Sequence record: OR594180
Reading direction: 5' to 3' (one strand)
Source: Escherichia phage vB_EcoM_SHAK7693
Length of the DNA stretch: 45,233 bases
Notes under the pieces: model-generated
What the model was told of the DNA's origin: nothing
What the model saw: the letters and a program-made list of their open reading frames with translations, nothing else
Databases searched by the model: none
In this document: piece after piece, positions 2,736 to 23,124 of the stretch
Layout: every line of letters begins with the position of its first letter
Position numbering within the stretch: the stretch's first letter is position 1
Program-made: the position numbers and the translations under genes

Positions 2736-2768
2736 AAAAAGGCCTCTTTCGAGGCCTTAGTTTTATTT
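2736..2768. terminator. bidirectional rho-independent terminator
   Basis: Stem AAGGCCTC-TTTC-GAGGCCTT flanked by A-run upstream and T-run downstream. Confidence 0.55.
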
Positions 2769-3284
2769 AAATCGCGCGGGCATTAACACCATAAAGGCCG
2801 TGTTTGAAAATTGTATTTTGCATCCTTTGGTTTGGTCCTGGAAATCGAAACGAGCAATTTCATTTTTGTATGCCTTAGAAATCTTGTACGCGTCTGCCAA
2901 ATAGCGCAGAGTGAACCCTATACTGTCGACAACACCCGGTGTGATGTGCGCCACGCGTCTCCAGTCAGGAAAGTTTCCTTCTACAACATCTACCGGAAGT
3001 GTACATATAAGCACACGATTATCGTCATAGAAAGATACACTGCCGTTGTCGTGGTTTACCTCTGCGTAGTTAAATTTAGAAGGCTCTCTCCCTTTGATGT
3101 CTATGAGAGTCCCTTTCTCAACGTTGGTCTTCACATTGTCGCAGAACAATCTATGACCGTCCGTAGACACTATCAATCCTTCAGGGTCTATGTAAAAAGC
3201 GTTCAAATAGTAGCGAACATCATTTTTAGCTCTGCATATTTTTGCCCCTACATACGCAGGGAAAGTAATTACTGTAGTAACCAT
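2763..3284 (-). CDS. DnaN-like protein (beta sliding clamp domain II plus C-terminal half of domain III)
   Basis: Motifs DVRYYLN, STDGHRL, GNFPDWRRV, SIGF..YL.D and C-terminal LMPARF match E. coli DnaN residues ~140-366 from memory; own promoter and terminator. Confidence 0.65.
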   Translation of the reverse strand: MVTTVITFPAYVGAKICRAKNDVRYYLNAFYIDPEGLIVSTDGHRLFCDNVKTNVEKGTLIDIKGREPSKFNYAEVNHDNGSVSFYDDNRVLICTLPVDVVEGNFPDWRRVAHITPGVVDSIGFTLRYLADAYKISKAYKNEIARFDFQDQTKGCKIQFSNTAFMVLMPARFK

Positions 3285-3311: not shown

Positions 3312-3340
3312 ATAGTACCCTATTATATTGGTGTCTGCAA
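3312..3340 (-). promoter_or_regulatory. class-A promoter (TTGCAG-N17-TACTATTCA) for DnaN-like gene
   Basis: Conserved element shared with five other loci; correct spacing to ATG at 3284. Confidence 0.5.
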
Positions 3341-3384
3341 ATATTATTTTTATACGTTACACTGGCGGTACTATAGGAGGGCAT

Positions 3385-4428
3385 ATGAGCTTACTTACAT
3401 CTCTAATCAGTCACCAGATATGGCTGCAACGCGCCGCATCCGGTGAAGTGAAAGACCTTACGCCGTTTATTCAGGAGATGCGGGACGAAATCAAACGGCA
3501 GGTGCTGTTATTCGGCGATGACGGGCGAAGCACCGCGCGACTGAATAAATTGTTACGTGACCTCGAAGAAGCACTAATGGGACTTACAGGCGACTGGCAA
3601 ACAAAGCTGACAGAAGACCTTAAGGAACTGGCGGCGTATGAGGCTGAGTGGAACGTAAAAACGCTGACCGCCAACGTAAACGCGGAATTTGTTACACCTA
3701 CCGCTGAGCAGGTATGGGCCGCCGCCGAGTTTCAACCGCTCTCATTAAGCGACAAGCCGGTTGATTTCACTAAGCTGATGTCAGGTTGGGGTGAAACAGA
3801 AGTTGCGCGCCTGGTAACCGGCGTTAAGATAGGCTTTGTTCAGGGCCAAACCACACGGCAGATTGTTAAGAATGTCGTAGGCGCTGGCGGACTGGCGGAC
3901 ATCTCAGAACGTAATGCAGCTACGGTAATCCGCACTGCGTTGTCTCACGTGTCCAACGAAGCACGCAACGAGACGTACCGCCAGAACGACGACATCATCG
4001 AGAAGTACGAATGGGTGTCCACCCTTGACAGCCGTACCAGTACGATTTGCAGAGCCAGAGACGGAATGACGTGGGAAATTGGTAAAGGTCCGATGCCCCC
4101 GGCTCATTTTGGGTGCAGAAGTACCACAGCACCAGTAATCAGTTCAGAATTCGACTTCCTCGATAAAGGCGCAAAACGTGCGGCTAAGGGCGCAGACGGA
4201 GGTACTCAAGTAAGCGCAGACACAACCTATTACGAGTTCCTCAAACAACAACCGGCGTGGTTTCAGGACCAGGCGCTCGGTCCTGTTCGCGGTAAGATTT
4301 TCCGTAACAGCGGTATATCGCCGGAAGAGTTTCGCGTAATATCTGTAGATGGTTTCGGGAATCCGCTCACGCTTAAGCAGATGGCGGAACTCGATAAACG
4401 TGTTGCTGATTATCTGAAAGGGGAATAA
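3385..4428 (+). CDS. head morphogenesis protein (Mu F / SPP1 gp7-like)
   Basis: Motifs TICRARDG and HFGCRS; RBS GGAGGG before ATG 3385; track ORF start 3328 overlaps promoter. Confidence 0.75.
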   Translation: MSLLTSLISHQIWLQRAASGEVKDLTPFIQEMRDEIKRQVLLFGDDGRSTARLNKLLRDLEEALMGLTGDWQTKLTEDLKELAAYEAEWNVKTLTANVNAEFVTPTAEQVWAAAEFQPLSLSDKPVDFTKLMSGWGETEVARLVTGVKIGFVQGQTTRQIVKNVVGAGGLADISERNAATVIRTALSHVSNEARNETYRQNDDIIEKYEWVSTLDSRTSTICRARDGMTWEIGKGPMPPAHFGCRSTTAPVISSEFDFLDKGAKRAAKGADGGTQVSADTTYYEFLKQQPAWFQDQALGPVRGKIFRNSGISPEEFRVISVDGFGNPLTLKQMAELDKRVADYLKGE

Positions 4429-12737: not shown

Positions 12738-12927
12738 TGTTAACTCTCTTAAATCGGGCTATGCCTGACTCGTTAATGCTGCCTATTTCAAAGAAGCTGC
12801 GATATTTAGGCGAATACATTCTTACGTCGCCGTTCTCTAGGGTGACCCCTTCATATACAGCGCCTACTTCGAATCCATTTTTCTCCGCGTACGGACTCAC
12901 ATCGGTGCATTCATACATATCTTTCAT
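12727..12927 (-). CDS. hypothetical protein (66 aa)
   Basis: ORF in antisense island, overlaps neighbours by a few codons. Confidence 0.45.
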   Translation of the reverse strand: MKDMYECTDVSPYAEKNGFEVGAVYEGVTLENGDVRMYSPKYRSFFEIGSINESGIARFKRVNSDK

Positions 12928-14054
12928 CCCAGCATCTCCGGTGAAATAGTTAAACGTGCGACCTCGCCATATTCGGCACTATAGGTAATTACATTTGCGC
13001 TACGGCCTGACATCCATCCACCGCGCGAGGCGTAGGCGTCTTTAGCCGCCAGGGTGCGGTGTTGCTCAACAATCATGTTACGGCTTTCCACAATCTTCTG
13101 ATGGTGGAGGTGGCCTACGTGGGCGTAGCTGTAAACGCTTTCGCCAAATGCTTTGCGGAACTTGGCAATCATAACCGGTTCGATAGCGTCGAATCGTGCC
13201 TTATGCCCGTGGTGAAAGAACAGCGTCGTTTTGCCGTGTTGCACCATCTTGTAAACATCTGGCGACGTATCGACGAACACACGAGGCTCATTGTCGTACA
13301 GCGTACTAAACATCTCAGCTAACCAAATCATTCCGCTTTCGTCGTGGTTTCCTTGCACGATAAGCAAGCGAACATTTTTATGCTTAACCAGCGCCATATC
13401 GACAACACGGCGGACCATACGAATCATGTAGCGGACAAGTTTCTGATAGCGAGTGTCCGCATCAAGGGCGTGACCGCTTGCAGGCGTAACGGCAACCAGA
13501 CTGTCGAAGTGCGCGAAGTCGCCCAGCAGGTTAATAACTCCAGTTCCTGCATCCGGCGCTTTCTGGAACGCCGCATCGAACCAGCGAGAAAACAGGTCTT
13601 CCGCAATCTTCATATCCCAGTCGTCGCCACTCTCGTCGGCCCAGGCCAGCATACCAAGATGGAAATCAGATACAGTGTAAAGATTGAGTAGTTTATCGTC
13701 ACGTTTGGTGCGAACGGCTTTAACTGGTACAACGGGAGTAATCTCCGACTTCATGCCTTCGATTACGGCTTTCATCAACTCGACCTGACGTTCAGCGTCA
13801 GTGTCTGTCTTAACCCATTGCAACTTAGTGTTGCCGAACTCGTCCACAAGCGACGACGTTCCTTTAATCTTGTAGCCGTCCGGGACAAGATGGCTAACGT
13901 CACGACCGTGACCTACGCCTTTCTTCGCCAGCTTCGCTTTACGGATACGAATAACGCGGTCTGAGATGCCGTATTTACGGGCGATGTCTACATTCTTCAT
14001 CCCGGCGTTCAATTCTTCCTGTAACTGTTCGTCGGTTATTTTCTTCTGGGCCAT
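12924..14054 (-). CDS. calcineurin-like metallophosphoesterase with N-terminal HTH
   Basis: Motifs DFH, GDFAH, GNHD, HHGH, GHLHH; N-terminal ~50 aa HTH-like (DIARKYGISDRVIRIR). Confidence 0.7.
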   Translation of the reverse strand: MAQKKITDEQLQEELNAGMKNVDIARKYGISDRVIRIRKAKLAKKGVGHGRDVSHLVPDGYKIKGTSSLVDEFGNTKLQWVKTDTDAERQVELMKAVIEGMKSEITPVVPVKAVRTKRDDKLLNLYTVSDFHLGMLAWADESGDDWDMKIAEDLFSRWFDAAFQKAPDAGTGVINLLGDFAHFDSLVAVTPASGHALDADTRYQKLVRYMIRMVRRVVDMALVKHKNVRLLIVQGNHDESGMIWLAEMFSTLYDNEPRVFVDTSPDVYKMVQHGKTTLFFHHGHKARFDAIEPVMIAKFRKAFGESVYSYAHVGHLHHQKIVESRNMIVEQHRTLAAKDAYASRGGWMSGRSANVITYSAEYGEVARLTISPEMLG

Positions 14055-14092: not shown

Positions 14093-14284
14093 TCACTTCT
14101 CTTTGACATTCGAGTTACAAGCCCAGATTAAAATAAATACCCACGGCAACAGAATCCAGCCAAGAAACAGGTTCGCCATGAATATCGCCAACTTCGCTTT
14201 ATGGTTGCGCATATGGGCTACTAAAAACGGGATAAAATAAACTAAAACGATAATGATTAAGAAGAACATAGTAATACCTGTCAT
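14093..14284 (-). CDS. small membrane protein (63 aa, two predicted TM helices)
   Basis: Internal ATG with RBS AGGAG; hydrophobic segments; first gene after class-A promoter. Confidence 0.5.
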   Translation of the reverse strand: MTGITMFFLIIIVLVYFIPFLVAHMRNHKAKLAIFMANLFLGWILLPWVFILIWACNSNVKEK

Positions 14285-14325
14285 GGTGTAGCTCCTGTTT
14301 GAGTTAACATTGTTGGTGTAAGTGA

Positions 14326-14354
14326 ATAGTATCCTATTATGTTGGGGTGCGCAA
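14326..14354 (-). promoter_or_regulatory. class-A promoter (TTGCGC-N17-TACTATTCA) for antisense island
   Basis: Conserved element upstream of island. Confidence 0.5.
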
Positions 14355-14462
14355 GTAATGTGATAGAATAATTTTGCGCCTAGTGTCGCACACGAAAAGC
14401 GGGTGGTTCCCGTCTGGCGCATTTACCATTAACCTGTAACCTCTTAACCAAAGGATTAAAGA

Positions 14463-14879
14463 ATGAAACTTTCTGATTTTTATTACGAAGCTGAGGCAGA
14501 AAAAGGCGCCCGTATGCCGATACCACTGAAAGACGGCACCGATTCAGGGGAGTGGCTGAACGTTGTTTCACCGGAGGCAGACGTTGCCGTTAAAGCTATG
14601 AGGGCGTTTACACTTGCGTACCGCGCGGCATTAGGTAAATTGAAACCGCTTCGCGATAAATGCGAGGAACTGAAAGATTTCTCGGAATACAACCTGAAGA
14701 TGGAAGACGCGGCCACGGACCTTAACCGACAGTTAGCAATTGAATTGGTTAACGGGTGGAGCCTGGACGACGAATTCAATAAAGAGAATCTGAACACACT
14801 CCTGACGCAATATAAACGACTCGCGGAACTTGTTGTTGTGTTTCATAACGAACAACTGCGCCAGTTACAGGAAAAGTAG
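14463..14879 (+). CDS. tail assembly chaperone (G-like)
   Basis: Acidic 138 aa protein immediately before tape measure with overlapping -1 frame ORF. Confidence 0.6.
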   Translation: MKLSDFYYEAEAEKGARMPIPLKDGTDSGEWLNVVSPEADVAVKAMRAFTLAYRAALGKLKPLRDKCEELKDFSEYNLKMEDAATDLNRQLAIELVNGWSLDDEFNKENLNTLLTQYKRLAELVVVFHNEQLRQLQEK

Positions 14880-15244
14880 ACGCGTTGCTCCAGTTCGCCC
14901 GTTGGAACTTCATAACCCGCCACAAACGGCGGGAATTTGACAGTATCGCCGACGGGCATAAAGCCGCGCTAATTGCTATGGGGGTTATGCAAGACGCGCC
15001 GGAAGCAACGCAGGACACCGGGCCGGAATGTCCCCCTGAGCTATTAACCACCTTCGAGAAGTACCGGGAAATCAAATTTACCCGCCGAGTGGATGCCGAC
15101 GGCATCAAGATGTACCCGCGCGAACAGTTACGATGGTCGGATTTAGTGGCATACAGCACCGTTTCAGGCCAGAATATAGGCATGTTTGAATCTGACATCA
15201 TCATGAGCTTAGACGCTATTTTCGAGGGTAGAAACGATGGCTGA
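14849..15244 (+). CDS. tail chaperone -1 frameshift extension (T-like part)
   Basis: -1 frame open from 14849; ends overlapping tape measure start; candidate slip site GGAAAAG at 14870-14876. Confidence 0.45.
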   Translation, partial: RTTAPVTGKVDALLQFARWNFITRHKRREFDSIADGHKAALIAMGVMQDAPEATQDTGPECPPELLTTFEKYREIKFTRRVDADGIKMYPREQLRWSDLVAYSTVSGQNIGMFESDIIMSLDAIFEGRNDG

Positions 15245-17576
15245 TGTAGCTAGTTTAGTTGTAAAAGTATCAGAGCAAGGCGCGAAAGCTACATCAGACC
15301 GTCTTGACAACCTTTCAAAGTCCGCAAAAGTAGCGGGGGCCGCTGTAGCAGGCCTTGCTTCTATCGTAGCGGCTACCGCATATAAAGCCGCGCAAGAACT
15401 GGTTGACTCACAGCGGCAACTGGACAAGATGTCCGCTAGTTTGAAGACCTTAACCGGAAGTACCCAGGGCGCTAAACAGGCGCTTAGTATCCTGCAAGAT
15501 TTTGCGCGCGACACACCATACGGGCTTGAGCAGGCGGTGGAAGGCTTCCGTAAGCTGGTGGCTCTGGGCCTTACCCCATCCGAGGAGGCGTTGCGGTCCT
15601 ACGGCAATACCGCATCGGCTATGGGTAAGGACCTTAATCAGATGATTGAGGCGGTAGCCGACGCCAGTACGTTCGAGTTCGAACGCCTCAAAGAATTCGG
15701 CATCAAAGCCAAGCAGAACAAAAACGACGTAGAGTTTACGTTCCAGGGAACGACAACGGTAGTTAAGAAAAGCGCTGCCGATATTGAGCAGTATTTACTC
15801 AATATTGGTAACGTAAATTTTGCAGGGGCTATGGCGGACCAAGCCAACACCCTTAATGGCGCTATCGCGAGTGCCAGTGACTCATGGTCGCAGCTAAAAA
15901 TGACGCTTGCCACCAGTCTTGATGTTGGCGCACTTGCTGAACCTATCAGGTATATCGATGACTTGATTCAGGAATTAAACGCGTCTGTTGCTTCCGGTGA
16001 ATTAGCCGCTGAAATGCAGATGTGGGGCGACATCGCGTCGGAAGTAGGAAGCGCTATCGAGATGTCATTCGACGCTGCGTTTGGCTTTGTTGGAGATGCC
16101 ATCAACGGGCTTAATGAACTGTGGGATTTCAGCAGCAAGAGTATTACGGATAGCGGAGAACAAACGGCTACTACCATCGCTGAATCCGCTGCCGATGCGC
16201 TTGACTTCATCGCGGAAGAGTTCACAGCGATGGAGAGATTCTTTGAAGATATGGTTAAAGGTGCGCAGGACGCGGGCCGTCTTGTACGAGCCGCTTTTAC
16301 CCCCGGGGAATCAGTAGACGTAGCTAAAAATATCAACTTCCAGCTTGGCATGGCTTTGGATACCCAGCGAGATGTCGCCGACGTTACGCGTAAAAGTTTC
16401 CGCGAACAGGTAGAAGCTCAACAGGATATTGTAGCGTTAAAACGCGCGGCGTATGACATCGATAAGGAATCCGCAAAAGCTGAGGGGTTAAACAAATTTA
16501 AGGTAACCGGAACTGGCGGCGGTTCTGATGATGACGGGTCTGCTGCAAAAGCCGCTAAGAAAGCAGCGGACGCGTTCGAGCGCCAGAAGAAAGCGGCGGA
16601 AGACTTCTACTATCAGTCAATCCATCTTAATGATGACGTATTTCAGAAAATAGAAGCTAACCAGGAAGAGCAACTATCTAAGTTGCAGGATTTCTATAGC
16701 AATAAGCTTCTTAGCGACCAGCAATACGAAAACGCCAAGACGCAGATTATGCTCTCTGCCGAACAGGCCCGCCAGGAAGAACTGGATAAACGCCAGAAAG
16801 AAGCCCTGGAAAAGCAGCAGAAAGGCGACGACTTCATGGCTCAGATTATGGGCCAGAACGCCACTGAGCTTGAGCTTCTCGATATTCAGGAACAGCAGAA
16901 ACTGGCGGTAGCGGATAAGTACCGGGAGCAGGGGCTGATTAGCGAGAAGCAGTATCAGGCCGCGCTTAACGCCATCAACGAGCAATACGCAACCAAGCGT
17001 GCCGACGCAACGGCAACCGCCTTCGGTAACATGGCCTCAAACATCGGGTCTGCGTTGGGTGAGGCTTCTGGCGCGTACAAGGCATTCGCTATCGTACAGG
17101 CCACCATAGCCACGTACACCGCCGCCATTGAAGCGTATAAGTCAACGGCTGCTATCCCGGTTGTTGGGCCGTTCCTCGCACCGGTAGCCGCTGCCGCTGC
17201 CGTTGGGGCAGGTATGGCGCAGGTTTCCGCTATCAGGTCTGCACGTGAACAGGGCGGTCAGTTATCCGCAGGGCAAGCATCTACCATCGCAGAACGAGGC
17301 AAACCTGAGGTCATCATGCCCGCTGGAGCATCGCGAGTGCGCACCGCGCAACAAATGAAAGAGATTATGGGGCAAAACGGAGGAAGTACCGGGCCCGCCA
17401 ATATCAGCATTATAAATAACACCAGCGCACAAATTGGCAACACCAGCGTTGAACAGGACGAAGAAGGCCGCCTACGTATCATCATCGAAGAACAGGTAGC
17501 CGCCTCTTTGCAGAATAGCAACAGCAAAATATCGAAAGCGAGGAAGGCTACAAGAAACGCACCGGGCTTTAAGTAG
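15237..17576 (+). CDS. tail tape measure protein
   Basis: 779 aa, Ala/Gln-rich coiled coil, follows chaperone pair. Confidence 0.85.
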   Translation: MADVASLVVKVSEQGAKATSDRLDNLSKSAKVAGAAVAGLASIVAATAYKAAQELVDSQRQLDKMSASLKTLTGSTQGAKQALSILQDFARDTPYGLEQAVEGFRKLVALGLTPSEEALRSYGNTASAMGKDLNQMIEAVADASTFEFERLKEFGIKAKQNKNDVEFTFQGTTTVVKKSAADIEQYLLNIGNVNFAGAMADQANTLNGAIASASDSWSQLKMTLATSLDVGALAEPIRYIDDLIQELNASVASGELAAEMQMWGDIASEVGSAIEMSFDAAFGFVGDAINGLNELWDFSSKSITDSGEQTATTIAESAADALDFIAEEFTAMERFFEDMVKGAQDAGRLVRAAFTPGESVDVAKNINFQLGMALDTQRDVADVTRKSFREQVEAQQDIVALKRAAYDIDKESAKAEGLNKFKVTGTGGGSDDDGSAAKAAKKAADAFERQKKAAEDFYYQSIHLNDDVFQKIEANQEEQLSKLQDFYSNKLLSDQQYENAKTQIMLSAEQARQEELDKRQKEALEKQQKGDDFMAQIMGQNATELELLDIQEQQKLAVADKYREQGLISEKQYQAALNAINEQYATKRADATATAFGNMASNIGSALGEASGAYKAFAIVQATIATYTAAIEAYKSTAAIPVVGPFLAPVAAAAAVGAGMAQVSAIRSAREQGGQLSAGQASTIAERGKPEVIMPAGASRVRTAQQMKEIMGQNGGSTGPANISIINNTSAQIGNTSVEQDEEGRLRIIIEEQVAASLQNSNSKISKARKATRNAPGFK

Positions 17577-17580
17577 TAAC

Positions 17581-17612
17581 AAAAAAAATAAGGCCCGAAA
17601 GGGCCTTATTTC
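17581..17612. terminator. bidirectional rho-independent terminator
   Basis: A8-TAAGGCCC-GAAA-GGGCCTTA-TTT. Confidence 0.6.
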
Positions 17613-17625
17613 TCCAGCCTCTGGG

Positions 17626-18276
17626 CTAACTACCCTCTTTTATCAAGGCGATAACGCGGTCGAACATACCTTCCCTTATCGCCTCTATCTCACATCTTCT
17701 TGATTCCGCCGCCCTTATCTTTTCAGCAATGTAAGCATCTAGCGCTTCTTCCTGAGTTTCAAAACGTCCTAGATTAATAGTTTTTTTATCACAGCTCACT
17801 GAGGCTTTAAATTTACCTCTAGATTCTTCATAAAAAACACCTGTAGGTGTTCCACTATTTTTCTTCTCCTTTAGGAAAACATTCAACCATTTCGGGATGA
17901 AAATGCAAGTGGTAGGGCTGTATACCTTATTAATACCAGAGAATATGTCCTTATCTAGCTCCCATCCCTCCACATAATTACAAAGCCACCATCTACGGAA
18001 GGACATAAACCTTTGCCACCCATGCCACACAGTTACATCCCTGTACGCAGGCCTTTTGTTTTTATACTCGGCGTCCACGCAACGTTGGATCATCCCTCGC
18101 CATGTAGCGTACGCCAGACACGTCTCACGGCTGCCGTTTATCTTAGGGCTAACCACATAATCGGCGTCATTTATGCCAAAACCACATATAGTTGCACGCT
18201 TAGTTTTGCTGCTTTTGTTCGCAGGATAATTCGCACGCAGCCACATGCTCTTGGCTACTTTTTCGGTTGGCATCAT
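17626..18276 (-). CDS. homing endonuclease-like protein with C-terminal AP2-like DNA-binding domain
   Basis: C-terminal KFKASV...INLGRFETQEEALDAYIAEKIRA resembles AP2 domain; RBS AGGAG before ATG 18276; catalytic motif not recognised. Confidence 0.45.
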   Translation of the reverse strand: MMPTEKVAKSMWLRANYPANKSSKTKRATICGFGINDADYVVSPKINGSRETCLAYATWRGMIQRCVDAEYKNKRPAYRDVTVWHGWQRFMSFRRWWLCNYVEGWELDKDIFSGINKVYSPTTCIFIPKWLNVFLKEKKNSGTPTGVFYEESRGKFKASVSCDKKTINLGRFETQEEALDAYIAEKIRAAESRRCEIEAIREGMFDRVIALIKEGS

Positions 18277-18311
18277 GTTAGTATCTCCTAAACTAATAGG
18301 AGTATCTTGCC

Positions 18312-19697
18312 ATGTCTTCTTTGAAATTTCCAGCAAGTTTAAAGCCAGTGGTATCGAAAGGCTACTCAATGACCAGACGCAACAACGTCTGGAGCGTCGA
18401 TTTAGCCGGTGGCGGGGTGCGTCAGGGGCGTGACACGTATTACGACGTGTTTCCGATAAGCGTAACCCTGATTACATCTGCACTAGGGCGGCAGGCGTTC
18501 CTGTCGTTCCTCGAAAAAGTCGATGGTGGTGCGTCAAGTTTCTGGATGGCGCACGACTTCGGCATGGGCATCGAGGATTATCAGGTAACAATCACGTCAA
18601 CCATCGCCGAGTCCACAGAAGATGGGATTAACTGGACAATCACTTTCACAGCAACCGCCGAGAAATCCCCGTTCCAGAACCTCGAGAATCAGTGCCTGAT
18701 TAACAATCTGCCAGATTTGTATGGTTGCTACGGGGATTGTCTGGGTAGTTTCCTGAAAATATACGCGAACTATGAGACTACGTTCCCGCGCATCTGGAGC
18801 GATGAAGGGCCCGCAGGATACCCGCCGATTAACCTTCTGGCGTCCGCCCTGGATAGCCGCATTGTGTACGACGGGCCGCAGGTTTATTACATCAACCGCA
18901 ACGGCAATCTTGTGCAATCAGCCACTAATGAATGGCCCCTAACATTTATTGATGGTGTTGCCGTTGGGCGTGTGCCGCCGGAGGTTGGTGGTCTAAACCT
19001 ACTAAAAATGTCAGAGGACTTATCGGATCCCGTATGGGCGAAAACAAGGACTACTGTTACCTACGGCGGAACGGGCGCATCCAAACTAGTCCCAACAACA
19101 ACCACTGGTACTCATCACGTTTTACAATTGATAACCCCGGAAGCATCTACGGCATACACCTATTCTGTTTTTGTGAAAGCAAATGGGTACAATAATGCTC
19201 TTGTTCAGATCGGAGTATTTGCTAGTCAGGTGGCAAGTAATCCTGTTTATGTAGACCTATCTACGGGGGTGATAACATCAGCTAATGACTATTCAAGATG
19301 CGGTATAATAGCAGTAGGTGATGGCTGGTTTAGAGTATGGGTGCGAGTTATTACTAATTCCTCCCCGACAAGTATAAACGCGTCTGTGTGGGCCTCTGAC
19401 GCTGCTAACAACACGTCTTTCCCAGGTGATGGTGTTAGTGCTATATCAGTTTTTGGCGCCCAAATGGAGAAATCTAATAATTCATCGTCGTATGTTAAAA
19501 CCGAAGAAAATTTAGTTACACGCCCCGCGGCATCGGCAAAAGTAGCCATGAATGGTGCGACAAGCATCGACATTACATACTCTGATGGTTCCACCGTAAA
19601 CGTGCCCGCAGTAGATAACTACGCCACCATCCCCCAAGCGGATTCGGCGTGGGGTAGTAAATATATCACCCGTATTGATTTTAATGTGGACGGTTAA
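18312..19697 (+). CDS. minor/distal tail protein
   Basis: First tail gene after tape measure; 461 aa. Confidence 0.5.
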   Translation: MSSLKFPASLKPVVSKGYSMTRRNNVWSVDLAGGGVRQGRDTYYDVFPISVTLITSALGRQAFLSFLEKVDGGASSFWMAHDFGMGIEDYQVTITSTIAESTEDGINWTITFTATAEKSPFQNLENQCLINNLPDLYGCYGDCLGSFLKIYANYETTFPRIWSDEGPAGYPPINLLASALDSRIVYDGPQVYYINRNGNLVQSATNEWPLTFIDGVAVGRVPPEVGGLNLLKMSEDLSDPVWAKTRTTVTYGGTGASKLVPTTTTGTHHVLQLITPEASTAYTYSVFVKANGYNNALVQIGVFASQVASNPVYVDLSTGVITSANDYSRCGIIAVGDGWFRVWVRVITNSSPTSINASVWASDAANNTSFPGDGVSAISVFGAQMEKSNNSSSYVKTEENLVTRPAASAKVAMNGATSIDITYSDGSTVNVPAVDNYATIPQADSAWGSKYITRIDFNVDG

Positions 19698-19700
19698 CTT

Positions 19701-20216
19701 ATGAGCCAGGAATCAGTAGAAGCAGCCTACCGCCGTAAGCTGGCGTCTAACCCGGACGGCGAGATGGATTACATCACGTTGCAAATCAGCCATCCGTTGC
19801 TGTCAAAGACGTATTATCTTGTGCGCGGGCTACAGGAACTTACGGCAACACTGGAGACAGGCGAAACAATAACATTCGAGCCAACCCCGATGGAGGCGTC
19901 GGGAGCGGCTAACAACAGTGATATGGACCAGACTACGACGTTTACTTTACCGGATATCCTCAATCAACTGGATGATGAGATGGATAAAATCCCGATGAGC
20001 AATACTGAGTTGCCTAAGTTCGTCTTCCGTCGTTATGTCAGCACCGACCTGTCTTACCCGGCTGACGGCCCTGTCGTGTACGAGTTACAGGCCATCAACC
20101 AGGAGAAGGGCGAGTTCTCCGCGGATGTCGGTACACCTATGCTGAACCAACGAAGCACTGGTATACTGATGACACCTAAAGAGATACCGTTATTACGCGG
20201 CCTGTTGACAACATGA
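19701..20216 (+). CDS. minor tail protein
   Basis: Position between distal tail and K-like genes. Confidence 0.4.
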   Translation: MSQESVEAAYRRKLASNPDGEMDYITLQISHPLLSKTYYLVRGLQELTATLETGETITFEPTPMEASGAANNSDMDQTTTFTLPDILNQLDDEMDKIPMSNTELPKFVFRRYVSTDLSYPADGPVVYELQAINQEKGEFSADVGTPMLNQRSTGILMTPKEIPLLRGLLTT

Positions 20217-20578
20217 ATATTAACGACTACACGGGCATACCTTACGACTTTCGCAAGCGCAATTGCTGGCATCATGTGCGAATTGTGCGGGCGGATGCCG
20301 GGTTAGAAACCCCGGCGTTCGACGTCACAAGCCCAACGGCAATTAATGAAGCGTTCGACGAAGGACATCGCAACACGAAGGGGCTTACGAAAATAGATAA
20401 GCCTGAAAACTTCTGTGCGGTGCTTATGGGGTATCGCCGTGGTGGTCGTATCGTGTGGCACGCAGGAGTTTACTTCGACGGGATGGTTAGCCATTGCGAG
20501 CTTGCTTCTCGTCAGGTACGGCTTGACAGGCTGGCGGACCTCAGAGACACGTACACGGAGATTGAATTTTGGCGATAA
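20213..20578 (+). CDS. tail assembly protein with NlpC/P60-type peptidase fold (lambda K-like)
   Basis: Cys in NCWHH and His residues in WHAGVY and VSHC spaced like the NlpC/P60 triad. Confidence 0.55.
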   Translation: MNINDYTGIPYDFRKRNCWHHVRIVRADAGLETPAFDVTSPTAINEAFDEGHRNTKGLTKIDKPENFCAVLMGYRRGGRIVWHAGVYFDGMVSHCELASRQVRLDRLADLRDTYTEIEFWR

Positions 20579-23124
20579 TCCTGCACTACACGCGAAACGC
20601 TGATGGCGCTTTCGACCGTACAAAACACGTCGGGATGCCGATGGAGTTTGTCGTTAACCGTATCCCGGACGGCGTGCCGGTGCGCGTCTACCTCGGCGAA
20701 ATTGGTGATGATACCGACGTAACTGACGACTTCGACGCACTCAAAGACGAAGACGCCGTGTACCACATTATAGAGGGTGCTGGTAGCGGGGCGCTTGGTG
20801 CCGTTAGTAAGGTGTTTGGTTTTATCCTTAAGCCAATCGCTAAGTTGTTTGGTCTGAACATGTCCGCAAACGCCAACTATACGGCGACTAACAACCAGAC
20901 AACATCACCAAATAACAGCCTCACAGACCGCTCAAACAAACCACGCCCTTACGAGCGCTCCTATGACATCTGCGGGACCGTGCAGACGATCCCTAATGAC
21001 CTGATGCAGACGTATAAGGCGTTCAACTCCACTGGTGCTTTGCTGGAATATTCGTACTATGACGCAGGGCGCGGACATCTGCATATTGAGGCTGATGGCG
21101 TCACAGAGGGCGACACCCTGATAAGCGACATCACAGGTTCCTCTGTTGCCATATATGCACCGTATACGTCACCGAACAACACCACATCGCCGCAACTACA
21201 AATCGGCGACGTCATTGACCAGAAACTCTATGTGACATACTCCAACGACGACGTTGACGGTATTGTACTGAAAGCACCAAACGACATCGGGGCCAACCCA
21301 AGCTCCGGTGGAACCGCCAAACGTATTTCGACCACCGGCTACCTATATGACCCGTCGGGTGATTCTGCTTTTTCTGAGTTTCTTAGTGTTGGTGATGTCG
21401 CAGTGTTGAGCAATTTCGACGTTAAGGACGTCACTAACCTAAACGGCTCGTTTGAAGTTTTATACGTCGACGACTTTGAGGTTCGGTTGTACGTCGGGGA
21501 TATAGGTAACTGGGGCAATCTTAATAACGGAGAGACTTACGCACTTACAGAGCGTTCTGACACGTTTATCGCCCCGAGCAACACCTATGACGTATCTCTT
21601 ACGGACTGGTATTACATGGTGCGCGGAGAGGTTGACCGGGTGCTTGCTAACGTTGCCGGGCAGAACGGCCTCTACAAATACGACGGGGGCTATAACCGCA
21701 CCAGTGTAACGGTGGAACTCCAGTACCAGATGATTGACTCCCAACGCAACCCTTTGAGCGACATTTACACGGTACAGGCTACAATTACAGGCAACAGTAC
21801 GGATTACGTCGGTACGTCTATCTACGGGCAGTTGCCGACCGCGTCTCGTTTCCGCGCCCGCATGCGCCGTATAACTAATTTCGACAAGGACTACGACGGT
21901 ACAGTAAGCGACGAGATAACGTTCATCAACCTGTACGGTCAGTCACTGGACACTACCCCGCATTACGGCAACCGAACTACAGTACATTGCGCCCGTAAAC
22001 AGACACCACGCGCCGCCAGTATCGATAACCCTGAACTGCGCATGATTGCTACAGAGATGTGCTACAAATACCTCGGCAATGGGGTATTCGATACAGTAAT
22101 GTCGCCAAACACTCAGGCCGTGCAGTCGCTAATCAGACTGGCTCGCGACCCGGCGGTGGGCAATCTGGAACTGACAACGGCAAACATGGATAAGTTGCTT
22201 GCCGTGCAGGAAGAAATTGAGTCCTATTTTGGCAGTGAATTAGCCGGACAATTCTGCTACACGTTCGACGACTACGATACCACGATGCAGGACATAGTTC
22301 AGACCATAGCGGAAGCCGTATTCTGTACTGCGTACCGCAAAGGTGCAGATATTATGCTGCGATTCGACCGTCCGGTTGCGGGGCCTGAAATGGTGTTCAC
22401 CCACCGCAGTAAGACGACCGGTACGGAGAAATGGACACGCACGTTCAATGATTCGACAACCTACGATAGCTTGTCGTTCTCGTACATCGACCCGGATACT
22501 AACGTACAGGAAACGATTTATATCCCGGAAGAACTCGGCGCAAACACCGAGGAATACGAATCGAAGGGCGTACGTAACTATCAGCAGGCGTATTGGCTGG
22601 CGTGGCGGCGCTACCAACGCAACGCGTTAAGTAAAGTTGTCGTAGAGTTTGAAGCTACCGAAGAAGGTGCGCTAGCTACCCCAGGCGGTGTAATCAGCGT
22701 AGTTAAAGGCTCGCGTATTGCGCCACAGGACGGCTATGTTGCTGCCGTTAATGGGCTTACGCTGACACTGTCACAGCCGGTTACGTTTACTCCGGGTGAC
22801 GACCATTCCATCATCCTCAAGAAGCGCGATGGCTCTGTACAGAGTATCTCCGTTATTAAAGGAAGCCACGACCGCGAGGTGATTATGCTCTCCGCGCCGG
22901 AGGAAGCAATCTACACGGGGAATAGCGCACTAAAAACTGAGTTTTCATTCGGCAACGAAGCAAGGCATAATGCTCAGAAGATAGTTGTTTCTTCAATCGA
23001 CCCTGGCGACGACCGCACGGTCAAGATTACGGGCTACAACTATGACGATGGATTCTATAAATACGACGGCGTCGCGCCTTTCGGTCGCGGTTTCTCCGAC
23101 GGATTAAGCAACGGTTTTTATTAA
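20569..23124 (+). CDS. tail tip / host specificity protein (J-like)
   Basis: 851 aa after K-like gene. Confidence 0.55.
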   Translation: MAIILHYTRNADGAFDRTKHVGMPMEFVVNRIPDGVPVRVYLGEIGDDTDVTDDFDALKDEDAVYHIIEGAGSGALGAVSKVFGFILKPIAKLFGLNMSANANYTATNNQTTSPNNSLTDRSNKPRPYERSYDICGTVQTIPNDLMQTYKAFNSTGALLEYSYYDAGRGHLHIEADGVTEGDTLISDITGSSVAIYAPYTSPNNTTSPQLQIGDVIDQKLYVTYSNDDVDGIVLKAPNDIGANPSSGGTAKRISTTGYLYDPSGDSAFSEFLSVGDVAVLSNFDVKDVTNLNGSFEVLYVDDFEVRLYVGDIGNWGNLNNGETYALTERSDTFIAPSNTYDVSLTDWYYMVRGEVDRVLANVAGQNGLYKYDGGYNRTSVTVELQYQMIDSQRNPLSDIYTVQATITGNSTDYVGTSIYGQLPTASRFRARMRRITNFDKDYDGTVSDEITFINLYGQSLDTTPHYGNRTTVHCARKQTPRAASIDNPELRMIATEMCYKYLGNGVFDTVMSPNTQAVQSLIRLARDPAVGNLELTTANMDKLLAVQEEIESYFGSELAGQFCYTFDDYDTTMQDIVQTIAEAVFCTAYRKGADIMLRFDRPVAGPEMVFTHRSKTTGTEKWTRTFNDSTTYDSLSFSYIDPDTNVQETIYIPEELGANTEEYESKGVRNYQQAYWLAWRRYQRNALSKVVVEFEATEEGALATPGGVISVVKGSRIAPQDGYVAAVNGLTLTLSQPVTFTPGDDHSIILKKRDGSVQSISVIKGSHDREVIMLSAPEEAIYTGNSALKTEFSFGNEARHNAQKIVVSSIDPGDDRTVKITGYNYDDGFYKYDGVAPFGRGFSDGLSNGFY

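Follow-up and report, generated by a model that had tools for sequence, protein, structure and literature searches.

A likely free-standing homing endonuclease gene of the IPA-HNH family at the tape-measure/tail-tip junction of a Kagunavirus-like coliphage

Escherichia phage vB_EcoM_SHAK7693 (sequence record OR594180), whose 45,233 nucleotides we refer to as the window, carries a minus-strand gene for a 216-residue protein (17626-18276) between its tape-measure gene and the first of its tail-tip genes. We consider it likely that this is a free-standing homing endonuclease gene of the IPA-HNH family, encoding an atypical HNH-like N-terminal domain and a C-terminal AP2 domain. The gene is part of a 735-bp insert (17577-18311) that is present in few related phages, is far more alike among its carriers than the genomes around it, and is linked to short recoded tracts in both neighbouring genes. 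The window represents a Kagunavirus-like (Guernseyvirinae) E. coli siphophage and spans its whole genome or most of it: the region 15000-21000 matched 251 phage records, with Kagunavirus at the top at 85-91% identity, and the first 25 kb of the window are likewise nearest to Kagunavirus.

The open reading frame (ORF) delimited mechanically on the minus strand (17626-18369) opens at a TTG. Its biological start is the ATG at 18276, which gives a protein of 216 amino acids (aa): a Shine-Dalgarno sequence, AGGAG on the minus strand (CTCCT, 18285-18289), stands 8 nt upstream of this ATG, and the nearest homologues open with MIPTEK or MMPTEK exactly at this position. On the opposite strand the first tail-tip gene begins with an ATG at 18312, preceded by its own AGGAG at 18298-18302, and the two start codons stand back to back with 35 bp between them. 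A first-pass annotation, made from the letters alone, had placed a minus-strand ORF with a C-terminal AP2-like DNA-binding domain between the tape-measure stop (17576) and the first tail gene, had described start codons about 35 bp apart with opposing ribosome-binding sites, and had proposed a free-standing homing-endonuclease-like gene; the coordinates, the start-codon arrangement with AGGAG on each strand, the AP2 fold and the insertion at the tape-measure/tail-tip junction were all borne out. The labels given to the gene in GenBank are inconsistent, being either 'hypothetical protein' or, in VIPECOTH07, 'HNH endonuclease'.

Alignment of the window with the empty-site phages Golestan and fEg-Eco06 delimits the insert and shows that, besides the endonuclease gene, it holds a hairpin and supplies the tail gene with a new Shine-Dalgarno sequence. 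A sensitive nucleotide search recovered it in six of the 251 matching phage records, about 2% of the related genomes, namely fEg-Eco19 (two records; 99.4% identity to the window), XY1 (two records; 98.1%), VIPECOTH07 (97.8%) and MirsaeidiM_Esher4 (88.8%). Eight insert-free relatives were inspected at the junction: in Golestan, fEg-Eco06, phiEc3, UTEC10, 22664BS2, KMB36 and fPoEco01 stop and start of the tape-measure and tail-tip genes, respectively, overlap in a TAATG, and in Snoke they are 3 nt apart. The uninterrupted junction of Golestan and fEg-Eco06 reads …AGCAAGGCCCGCAAGGCCACAAGAAACGCGCCGGGGTTTAAATAATGAGCGACTTATACTTTCCACGTAGCCTTAAGCC…, and this empty-site sequence has no match anywhere in the window, even with three mismatches allowed. 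The insert has a GC content of 0.39-0.47 as against 0.50-0.61 in its flanks. Genomes that are otherwise homologous thus differ in the presence or absence of the insert at one precise site. The first-pass annotation had held that a gene found universally in related genomes with no empty-site variants, or one for which no nuclease or DNA-binding domain is supported, would speak against a homing element; neither was found, the carriers being six in 251 and the AP2 domain being supported. One carrier record calls for separate mention: the linear record of MirsaeidiM_Esher4 (PQ579973.1) opens within the endonuclease gene, and ~60 bp are shared by its two ends. Its gene is annotated as a truncated 'hypothetical protein' because the record is cut there, and an apparent frameshift and duplication was rejected as an artefact of naive circular joining across the terminal overlap.

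Comparison of the window with fEg-Eco19, XY1 and VIPECOTH07 in 50-nt bins showed 98-100% identity over 17600-18350 and 80-92% on either side, with the 5' two-thirds of the fEg-Eco19 tape-measure gene too diverged to align more than barely; the element is therefore much younger than the host genomes. We then compared 400 nt of flank on each side between four insert-bearing and eight empty-site phages, taking as fixed those differences at which the two groups share no base. Eight fixed differences, all synonymous, lie in the last ~50 nt of the tape-measure gene (recoded 3' end, 17532-17576, plus strand), with none in the preceding 350 nt, and ten lie in the first ~50 nt of the tail gene (recoded 5' end ATGTCTTCTTTGAAATTTCCAGCAAGTTTAAAGCC, 18312-18346, plus strand), with one in the next 350 nt. 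The peptide at the end of the tape-measure protein, SKARKATRNAPGFK, is the same in both groups, its serine codons being TCG versus AGC and its arginine codons AGG versus CGC. The first tail codons of the empty-site phages are ATGAGCGAC…, and the start of the tail gene changes from MSDLYFPRSLKP in these phages to MSSLKFPASLKP in the insert-bearing ones. This 5' allele of the tail gene, ATGTCTTCTTTGARATTTCCAGCAAGTTTAAAGCC or a near variant of it, is common to all seven insert-bearing lineages, Esher4 included, and stays nearly invariant although the endonuclease protein falls to 56% identity and the rest of the tail gene is heavily diverged.

The lower identities come from three metagenomic homologues, L014, L016 and L017 (80%, 60% and 56% protein identity, respectively), which are likewise inserted antisense at this very junction; 11-13 nt separate them from the tape-measure stop and 35-37 nt from the tail ATG. 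L017 (metagenome contig ERZ14207130 NODE_62) additionally encodes a second paralogue (2133-2759; 34% identity, phrog_953), also antisense, between the gpL-like (DUF1833) and gpK-like tail genes, so that its tail-tip operon has two occupied homing sites; in the window the junction corresponding to this second site (~20213) is empty. Copy numbers of two to four are seen for the family in many phages. Horizontal movement is evident both in an insert that is more alike than its flanks and in the co-conversion of these flanks. As judged from these genome comparisons, the pattern at the junction appears to be the signature of intronless homing by a free-standing homing endonuclease gene, for which the free-standing Seg endonucleases of phage T4 serve as the model.

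Searches with the protein point to one particular family of such genes. Against PHROGs it was assigned to phrog_953 ('HNH endonuclease'; E-value 8.9e-65), Pfam returned a sub-threshold AP2 match only, and the NCBIfam search gave no match. Among 5.8 billion proteins we recovered 320 homologues (E < 1e-3), almost all of them 190-220 aa in length and with AP2 as the sole precomputed Pfam domain. The architecture is the same throughout the family, and the window protein is therefore not a truncated canonical HNH enzyme. A tblastn search of phage genomes matched 1407 records, mostly from phages of Vibrio, Rheinheimera ('Barba'), Escherichia, Bacillus, Pseudomonas and Acinetobacter, and including ICP1, where the gene is labelled 'Previously called: GP209'. 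The BLASTP match to ICP1 gp209 has an E-value of 3e-21 with 34% identity over 167 residues, and the best PHROG of gp209 is again phrog_953 (E-value 9.4e-75). Matches to GIY-YIG/T5orf172, LAGLIDADG or other homing-endonuclease catalytic domains were absent in Pfam, NCBIfam and PHROG searches.

The IPA-HNH homing endonuclease genes were defined on gp59, gp115/116 and gp209 of ICP1 (Barth et al. 2023, PMC10448857). Their products have an N-terminal domain that is too divergent for the Pfam HNH_3 model, yet detectable by HHsearch, and a C-terminal AP2 domain, and the genes are abundant in Barbaviruses, where they often adjoin essential genes (PMC10448857). The window protein resembles the ICP1 proteins in its length of ~200 aa, in the atypical, putatively HNH-like N-terminal domain missed by HNH_3 and in the C-terminal AP2, and it shares with gp209 the pattern LDKD…NK.Y.P..C.F…N. 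The genes are likewise comparable in being free-standing, multi-copy, sporadic and next to essential genes, including the tape-measure gene. They differ in their hosts, which are ICP1, Barbavirus and Flaumdravirus for the IPA-HNH genes and a Kagunavirus coliphage here, in the antisense orientation of the window gene to the surrounding late operon, and in ~25 extra N-terminal residues that the window protein has relative to most family members. On the basis of its homology to the founding ICP1 proteins, its C-terminal AP2 and its free-standing, sporadic occurrence beside essential genes, we place the window gene in the IPA-HNH family. This family has already been published, together with its architecture and its tendency to adjoin tape-measure and other essential genes (PMC10448857); in that paper we found no discussion of the homing site, of flank recoding or of a lysine-for-histidine replacement. 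What the present comparison adds is the assignment of a Kagunavirus gene to the family, the delimitation of a mobile unit with its probable target and putatively resistant alleles, and the observation that the HNH-like motif of the family carries an invariant lysine in place of the histidine together with an invariant tyrosine in the loop.

The AP2 DNA-binding domain spans residues 145-190 (17707-17844, minus strand). A family profile searched against the PDB reached only AP2 structures, along with noise from deoxycytidine kinase; in a PDB sequence search with the single protein a match to topoisomerase IV (E-value 0.16) was rejected as chance. N-terminal to the AP2 domain lies a putative beta-beta-alpha-metal (HNH-like) motif (residues 104-135; 17872-17967, minus strand) of the form G-W-E-L-D108-K109-D110-x5-N116-K-V-Y119-S-P-x2-C124-x-F-x5-N132, which in the structure model forms a strand (105-108), a loop, a second strand (125-128) and a helix (129-135). 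Across 119 homologues W59, R65, W87, F90, F93, W96, D108, K109, D110, Y119, N132 and G146 are invariant. The invariant D108 and N132 are 24 residues apart in this predicted strand-strand-helix arrangement, the fold matches of which to HNH enzymes are weak. In a Foldseek search of the PDB with the model of the N-terminal domain nothing was found with an E-value below 4; the HNH enzymes colicin E9, Cas8-HNH and PacI recurred weakly, none of them significantly. PacI (PDB: 3m7k and 3ldy) was the best PDB match of the N-terminal domain, but a weak one (15% identity; Foldseek E-value 9.4).

A further comparison is with p03, p17, p49L and p57R of Xanthomonas phage Xp10, canonical HNH_3-AP2 homing endonucleases (Magnani et al. 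2004, as cited in PMC10448857). Like the window protein, they have an HNH-type motif followed by AP2, with a nearly equal distance of 13-14 residues from the last asparagine of the motif to the G-V of the AP2 domain. A profile-profile comparison of the family with Xp10 p57R and 107 relatives, verified by Pfam as HNH_3-AP2, gave a full-length match with a probability of 98.7% (E-value 2.4e-16), in which the motifs are in register: the LDK ending in K109 falls on the LDH ending in the catalytic histidine, N116 on the structural asparagine and N132 on the metal-binding asparagine. The Xp10 proteins differ in matching Pfam HNH_3 with E-values of ~1e-15 and in possessing the catalytic histidine, where the window protein has a lysine and no HNH_3 match. 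Upstream of the motif the window protein has a helical domain (Y56..W59..M62..R65, W87..F90..F93..W96) that is unrelated in sequence to the Xp10 N-termini. An HNH ancestry of the N-terminal domain is plausible, in agreement with the published HHsearch result (PMC10448857). The gene for Xp10 p17 (L020:9807-10325) lies directly upstream of the Xp10 tape-measure gene, and AP2-type endonuclease genes flank the same essential gene in unrelated phages.

PacI offers a precedent for an HNH enzyme without the histidine: it lacks this residue and uses a tyrosine in the inter-strand loop instead, and it is the only known active exception cited, the His-Me finger groups without both the histidine and a tyrosine substitute being regarded as inactive DNA binders (PMC5714182). 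By analogy, either K109 at the histidine position or Y119 in the loop could serve catalysis in the window protein. PacI differs from the window protein in carrying a pair of zinc-binding Cys4 motifs and in lacking an AP2 domain.

The gene also shows the marks of selection. Against the L014 orthologue the ratio of nonsynonymous to synonymous substitution rates (dN/dS) is 0.06 overall, with synonymous divergence (dS) saturated at ~2; it is 0.034 over the N-terminal 140 codons and 0.116 over the AP2 part. In every lineage examined the gene is intact. These substitution patterns indicate that it is not decaying and that the putative nuclease domain is its most constrained part. The suggestion of the first-pass annotation that the gene may be degenerate or domesticated accordingly found no backing: it is intact, its dN/dS is low, D108, K109, D110, Y119 and N132 are invariant, its horizontal spread is recent, and as a member of IPA-HNH it is no decayed canonical HNH gene.

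Candidate expression signals lie in and next to the insert. A GC-rich hairpin (17583-17614) between the convergent tape-measure and endonuclease genes has a computed folding energy of -25.4 kcal/mol for the minus strand (z -4.6) and -21.9 kcal/mol for the plus strand (z -4.3). On the minus strand U8 comes next and on the plus strand UUCUCC, and we predict that the hairpin acts as an intrinsic terminator for the endonuclease transcript, the plus-strand U-tract being poor. The A8 run at 17581-17588 is expanded relative to XY1 and VIPECOTH07, which have ATA there, and it is only because of this run that the hairpin becomes a canonical U8 terminator on the minus strand. In L014 (4639-4658) and L017 (4642-4661) a different GC-rich hairpin with a T-run is found on the tape-measure-coding strand, overlapping the 3' end of the endonuclease gene. 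It has the look of a terminator within the tail operon, and a degenerate remnant of it seems to persist at 17617-17645 of the window.

The first-pass annotation had reasoned that the promoter of each of the two divergent genes must lie inside the other. For the endonuclease gene this stands as regards the -35 element: L016 and L017 have a 10/12 match to a sigma-70 promoter directed at it (TGGAAA-17-TATAAT), with the -35 within codons 6-7 of the tail gene and the -10 between the tail ATG and its Shine-Dalgarno sequence. In the window this -35 is kept (TGGAAA, 18332-18327) and a 17-nt spacer separates it from a -10 that is only CAAGAT (18309-18304); the putative promoter (18304-18332, minus strand) is therefore weak and was not flagged by a promoter scan. 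The endonuclease transcript is predicted to begin at ~18296-18300 on the minus strand. The converse half of the reasoning probably does not hold, for the tail gene most likely needs no promoter within the endonuclease gene: with the poor plus-strand U-tract, late-operon transcription probably reads through the hairpin into the tail genes. A promoter-like site on the plus strand at 18267-18294 (TTGGCA-16-TAAACT, 9/12) was rejected, as one such site was found against 2.0 expected by chance, it is not conserved in L014, L016 or L017, and the predicted transcription start would remove the Shine-Dalgarno sequence of the tail gene.

At the level of translation the insert swaps the TAATG coupling of the empty-site phages for a strong dedicated Shine-Dalgarno sequence of the tail gene. 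The opposed Shine-Dalgarno sequences (CTCCT at 18285-18289 and AGGAG at 18298-18302) form a short inverted repeat (18285-18302); they are mutual reverse complements, and the 6-bp hairpin that they can form in either transcript (z ~-2.4) would block access to the ribosome-binding site. As a translational regulator this hairpin was discounted: it is weak, and since L016 and L017 do not preserve the pairing it is probably incidental. Rfam models found nothing over 17000-19000. That the first 35 nt of the tail gene are so extremely conserved could be due to the putative endonuclease -35 that lies among them. This segment may carry three functions at once, as coding sequence, as the cleavage-resistant form of the target and as the -35 or upstream part of the endonuclease promoter, and this overlap of functions would account for a conservation that exceeds even that of the endonuclease gene.

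Taken as a homing endonuclease gene, the element would act in mixed infections. The protein would recognise the uninterrupted tape-measure/tail-tip junction …GCGCCGGGGTTTAAATAATGAGCGACTTATA… of gene-free phages, which is GC-rich, as AP2 prefers, and would cut at or near it; repair of the break off a gene-bearing genome would then copy the 735-bp insert together with ~35-50 nt of recoded flank on each side, that is, intronless homing with co-conversion. The carrier genome would be protected in that its site is split by the insert and its flanking codons are recoded, and the tail operon would come to little harm, given the new strong Shine-Dalgarno sequence, the weak antisense promoter and a hairpin predicted to be a good terminator on the minus strand only. 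Intronless homing of this type is known from the free-standing endonucleases of T4 (SegF, SegG, SegE and the I-TevIII-type Mob genes). The T4 systems share with the window element a gene placed between two conserved essential genes, the existence of empty-site relatives, localised co-conversion or exclusion of flanking markers and, putatively in the window, a carrier site that is resistant through sequence differences. The Seg enzymes are however of the GIY-YIG type, the T4 endonuclease genes are usually co-oriented with their neighbours and Seg cleavage has been shown experimentally, whereas the window gene belongs to another nuclease family, lies antisense and has a cleavage activity that is predicted only.

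Several observations weigh against this interpretation. The catalytic histidine expected at the end of strand 1 is absent, K109 being invariant in all 119 homologues and in ICP1 gp209. Pfam, run on all 119 family members, reported no nuclease family, only AP2 and scattered chance matches; the earlier remark that no HNH or GIY-YIG catalytic motif is evident is literally correct, as the Pfam models for these match none of the 119. When the N-terminal domain alone was aligned by hhalign with the HNH_3 profile, the probability was 0.5% with a 4-sequence and 5% with a 108-sequence profile, and the full-length scores of 97-99% therefore stem from AP2 and are not independent proof of HNH ancestry. 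The endonuclease promoter of the window matches the consensus at 7/12 positions by reading of the sequence. We found no biochemical test of any IPA-HNH protein in PMC10448857. Finally, the element has long occupied one site, where orthologues with as little as 56% identity are found, and a useful gene that is passed on vertically and often lost could produce the same picture.

The missing histidine and the lack of a nuclease model, or of a significant HNH profile match, for the N-terminal domain alone would fit a DNA binder that descends from a homing endonuclease, is dead as a nuclease and has been domesticated as a regulator or as an anti-defence or anti-competitor factor (compare CapR and CasPR), kept for its benefit to the phage. 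The view of His-Me finger groups lacking both histidine and tyrosine substitute as inactive DNA binders (PMC5714182) is in line with this, as is the finding that phage proteins with an AP2 domain may function purely as transcriptional silencers (bioRxiv 10.64898/2026.02.23.707548), and so are the strong purifying selection and the persistence of distant orthologues at one site. An occupancy of ~2% among related genomes would however be odd for a beneficial regulator. Moreover, an insert that is nearly the same in divergent backgrounds, sharply bounded and flanked by recoded sequence bears the hallmarks of self-promoted mobility, and the family is multi-copy within genomes at essential-gene junctions (PMC10448857). 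The invariance of the putative metal binders D108 and N132 and of K109 and Y119 would be unexpected in a pure DNA binder, and PacI demonstrates that an HNH enzyme can be active without the histidine. We regard domestication as rather unlikely.

A further alternative is that the gene is a passive 'moron' spread by ordinary homologous recombination without any cleavage of its own, the recoded flanks being donor-lineage sequence carried along. Kagunavirus genomes are indeed mosaic, with a tail-tip gene that switches between forms of 166 aa and ~465 aa and an identity collapse at ~18750-19520, and other antisense accessory genes are found in the same structural module. Such passive spread sits poorly with recoded tracts that are very short, symmetric about the junction and identical in all carriers, while the sequence beyond them follows the local lineage; with a tail-gene 5' segment of 35 nt that stays nearly invariant while the synonymous sites of the endonuclease gene are saturated; and with homology to a recognised homing-endonuclease family. 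It thus appears quite improbable. That the gene is an antisense chance ORF or an annotation artefact, for which only its antisense position inside an operon could be adduced, we rejected as next to inconceivable, in view of its 320 homologues, a structure model with a predicted local distance difference test score (pLDDT) of 95, its own Shine-Dalgarno sequence, a dN/dS of 0.06 and its lack of overlap with any plus-strand gene.

A homing endonuclease gene remains our preferred interpretation, and as such the element would leave the current picture of homing endonucleases unchanged, being a tidy but ordinary case. Its value lies rather in being a clean natural example in which the mobile unit, the probable target (the tape-measure stop and tail-tip start) and a putative cleavage-resistant recoded allele can be read from genome comparison. 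It also provides a tractable E. coli model for IPA-HNH, a family so far defined bioinformatically only and with a putative active site that lacks the canonical histidine, and in therapeutic coliphages such elements serve as markers of recombination boundaries within tail modules. More speculatively, the IPA-HNH proteins might be active beta-beta-alpha-metal nucleases in which the general-base histidine has been permanently replaced by Lys109, by a PacI-like Tyr119 or by both, with the tail-gene segment serving all three of the functions proposed above; we offer this combination tentatively and with some doubt. If the histidine-less site were active, a large and widespread family of phage homing endonucleases would represent a distinct catalytic variant of the His-Me finger.

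The genes around the insert lie on the plus strand. The tail assembly chaperones (14463-15244) precede the tape-measure gene (15237-17576; phrog_1538, E-value 1.5e-205, and Pfam TMP_3), which is the left neighbour of the insert. Its right neighbour, the first tail-tip gene (18312-19697), is lambda gpM-like, is annotated as 'tail tip protein M' in one relative, and matches phrog_384 over residues 1-163 and phrog_11600 over residues 128-459; it is followed by a gpL-like gene with DUF1833 (19701-20216), a gpK-like gene (20213-20578) and a gpJ-like gene (20569-23124). The tail-tip gene is dimorphic among close relatives. The long form of 461-472 aa, which combines a gpM-like N-terminus with a phrog_11600 C-terminal extension, occurs in the window, XY1, Golestan and fEg-Eco06, and the short form of 166 aa in VIPECOTH07, fEg-Eco19, KMB36 and fPoEco01. 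The collapse of identity with relatives within this gene marks a recombination boundary directly downstream of the endonuclease gene.

Three further genes lie antisense within the plus-strand structural module (2763-3284, 12924-14054 and 14093-14422, minus strand), and antisense genes are therefore common there. Embedded in this way are genes for a RusA-like resolvase, a DNA-repair exonuclease with an N-terminal helix-turn-helix and a superinfection-immunity-like membrane protein. Lastly, the annotations of KMB36 and Snoke report an intein within the head-morphogenesis (minor head) protein. The window homologue (3328-4428) is 366 aa long and may be free of it, in which case this would be another mobile-element polymorphism in this phage group.

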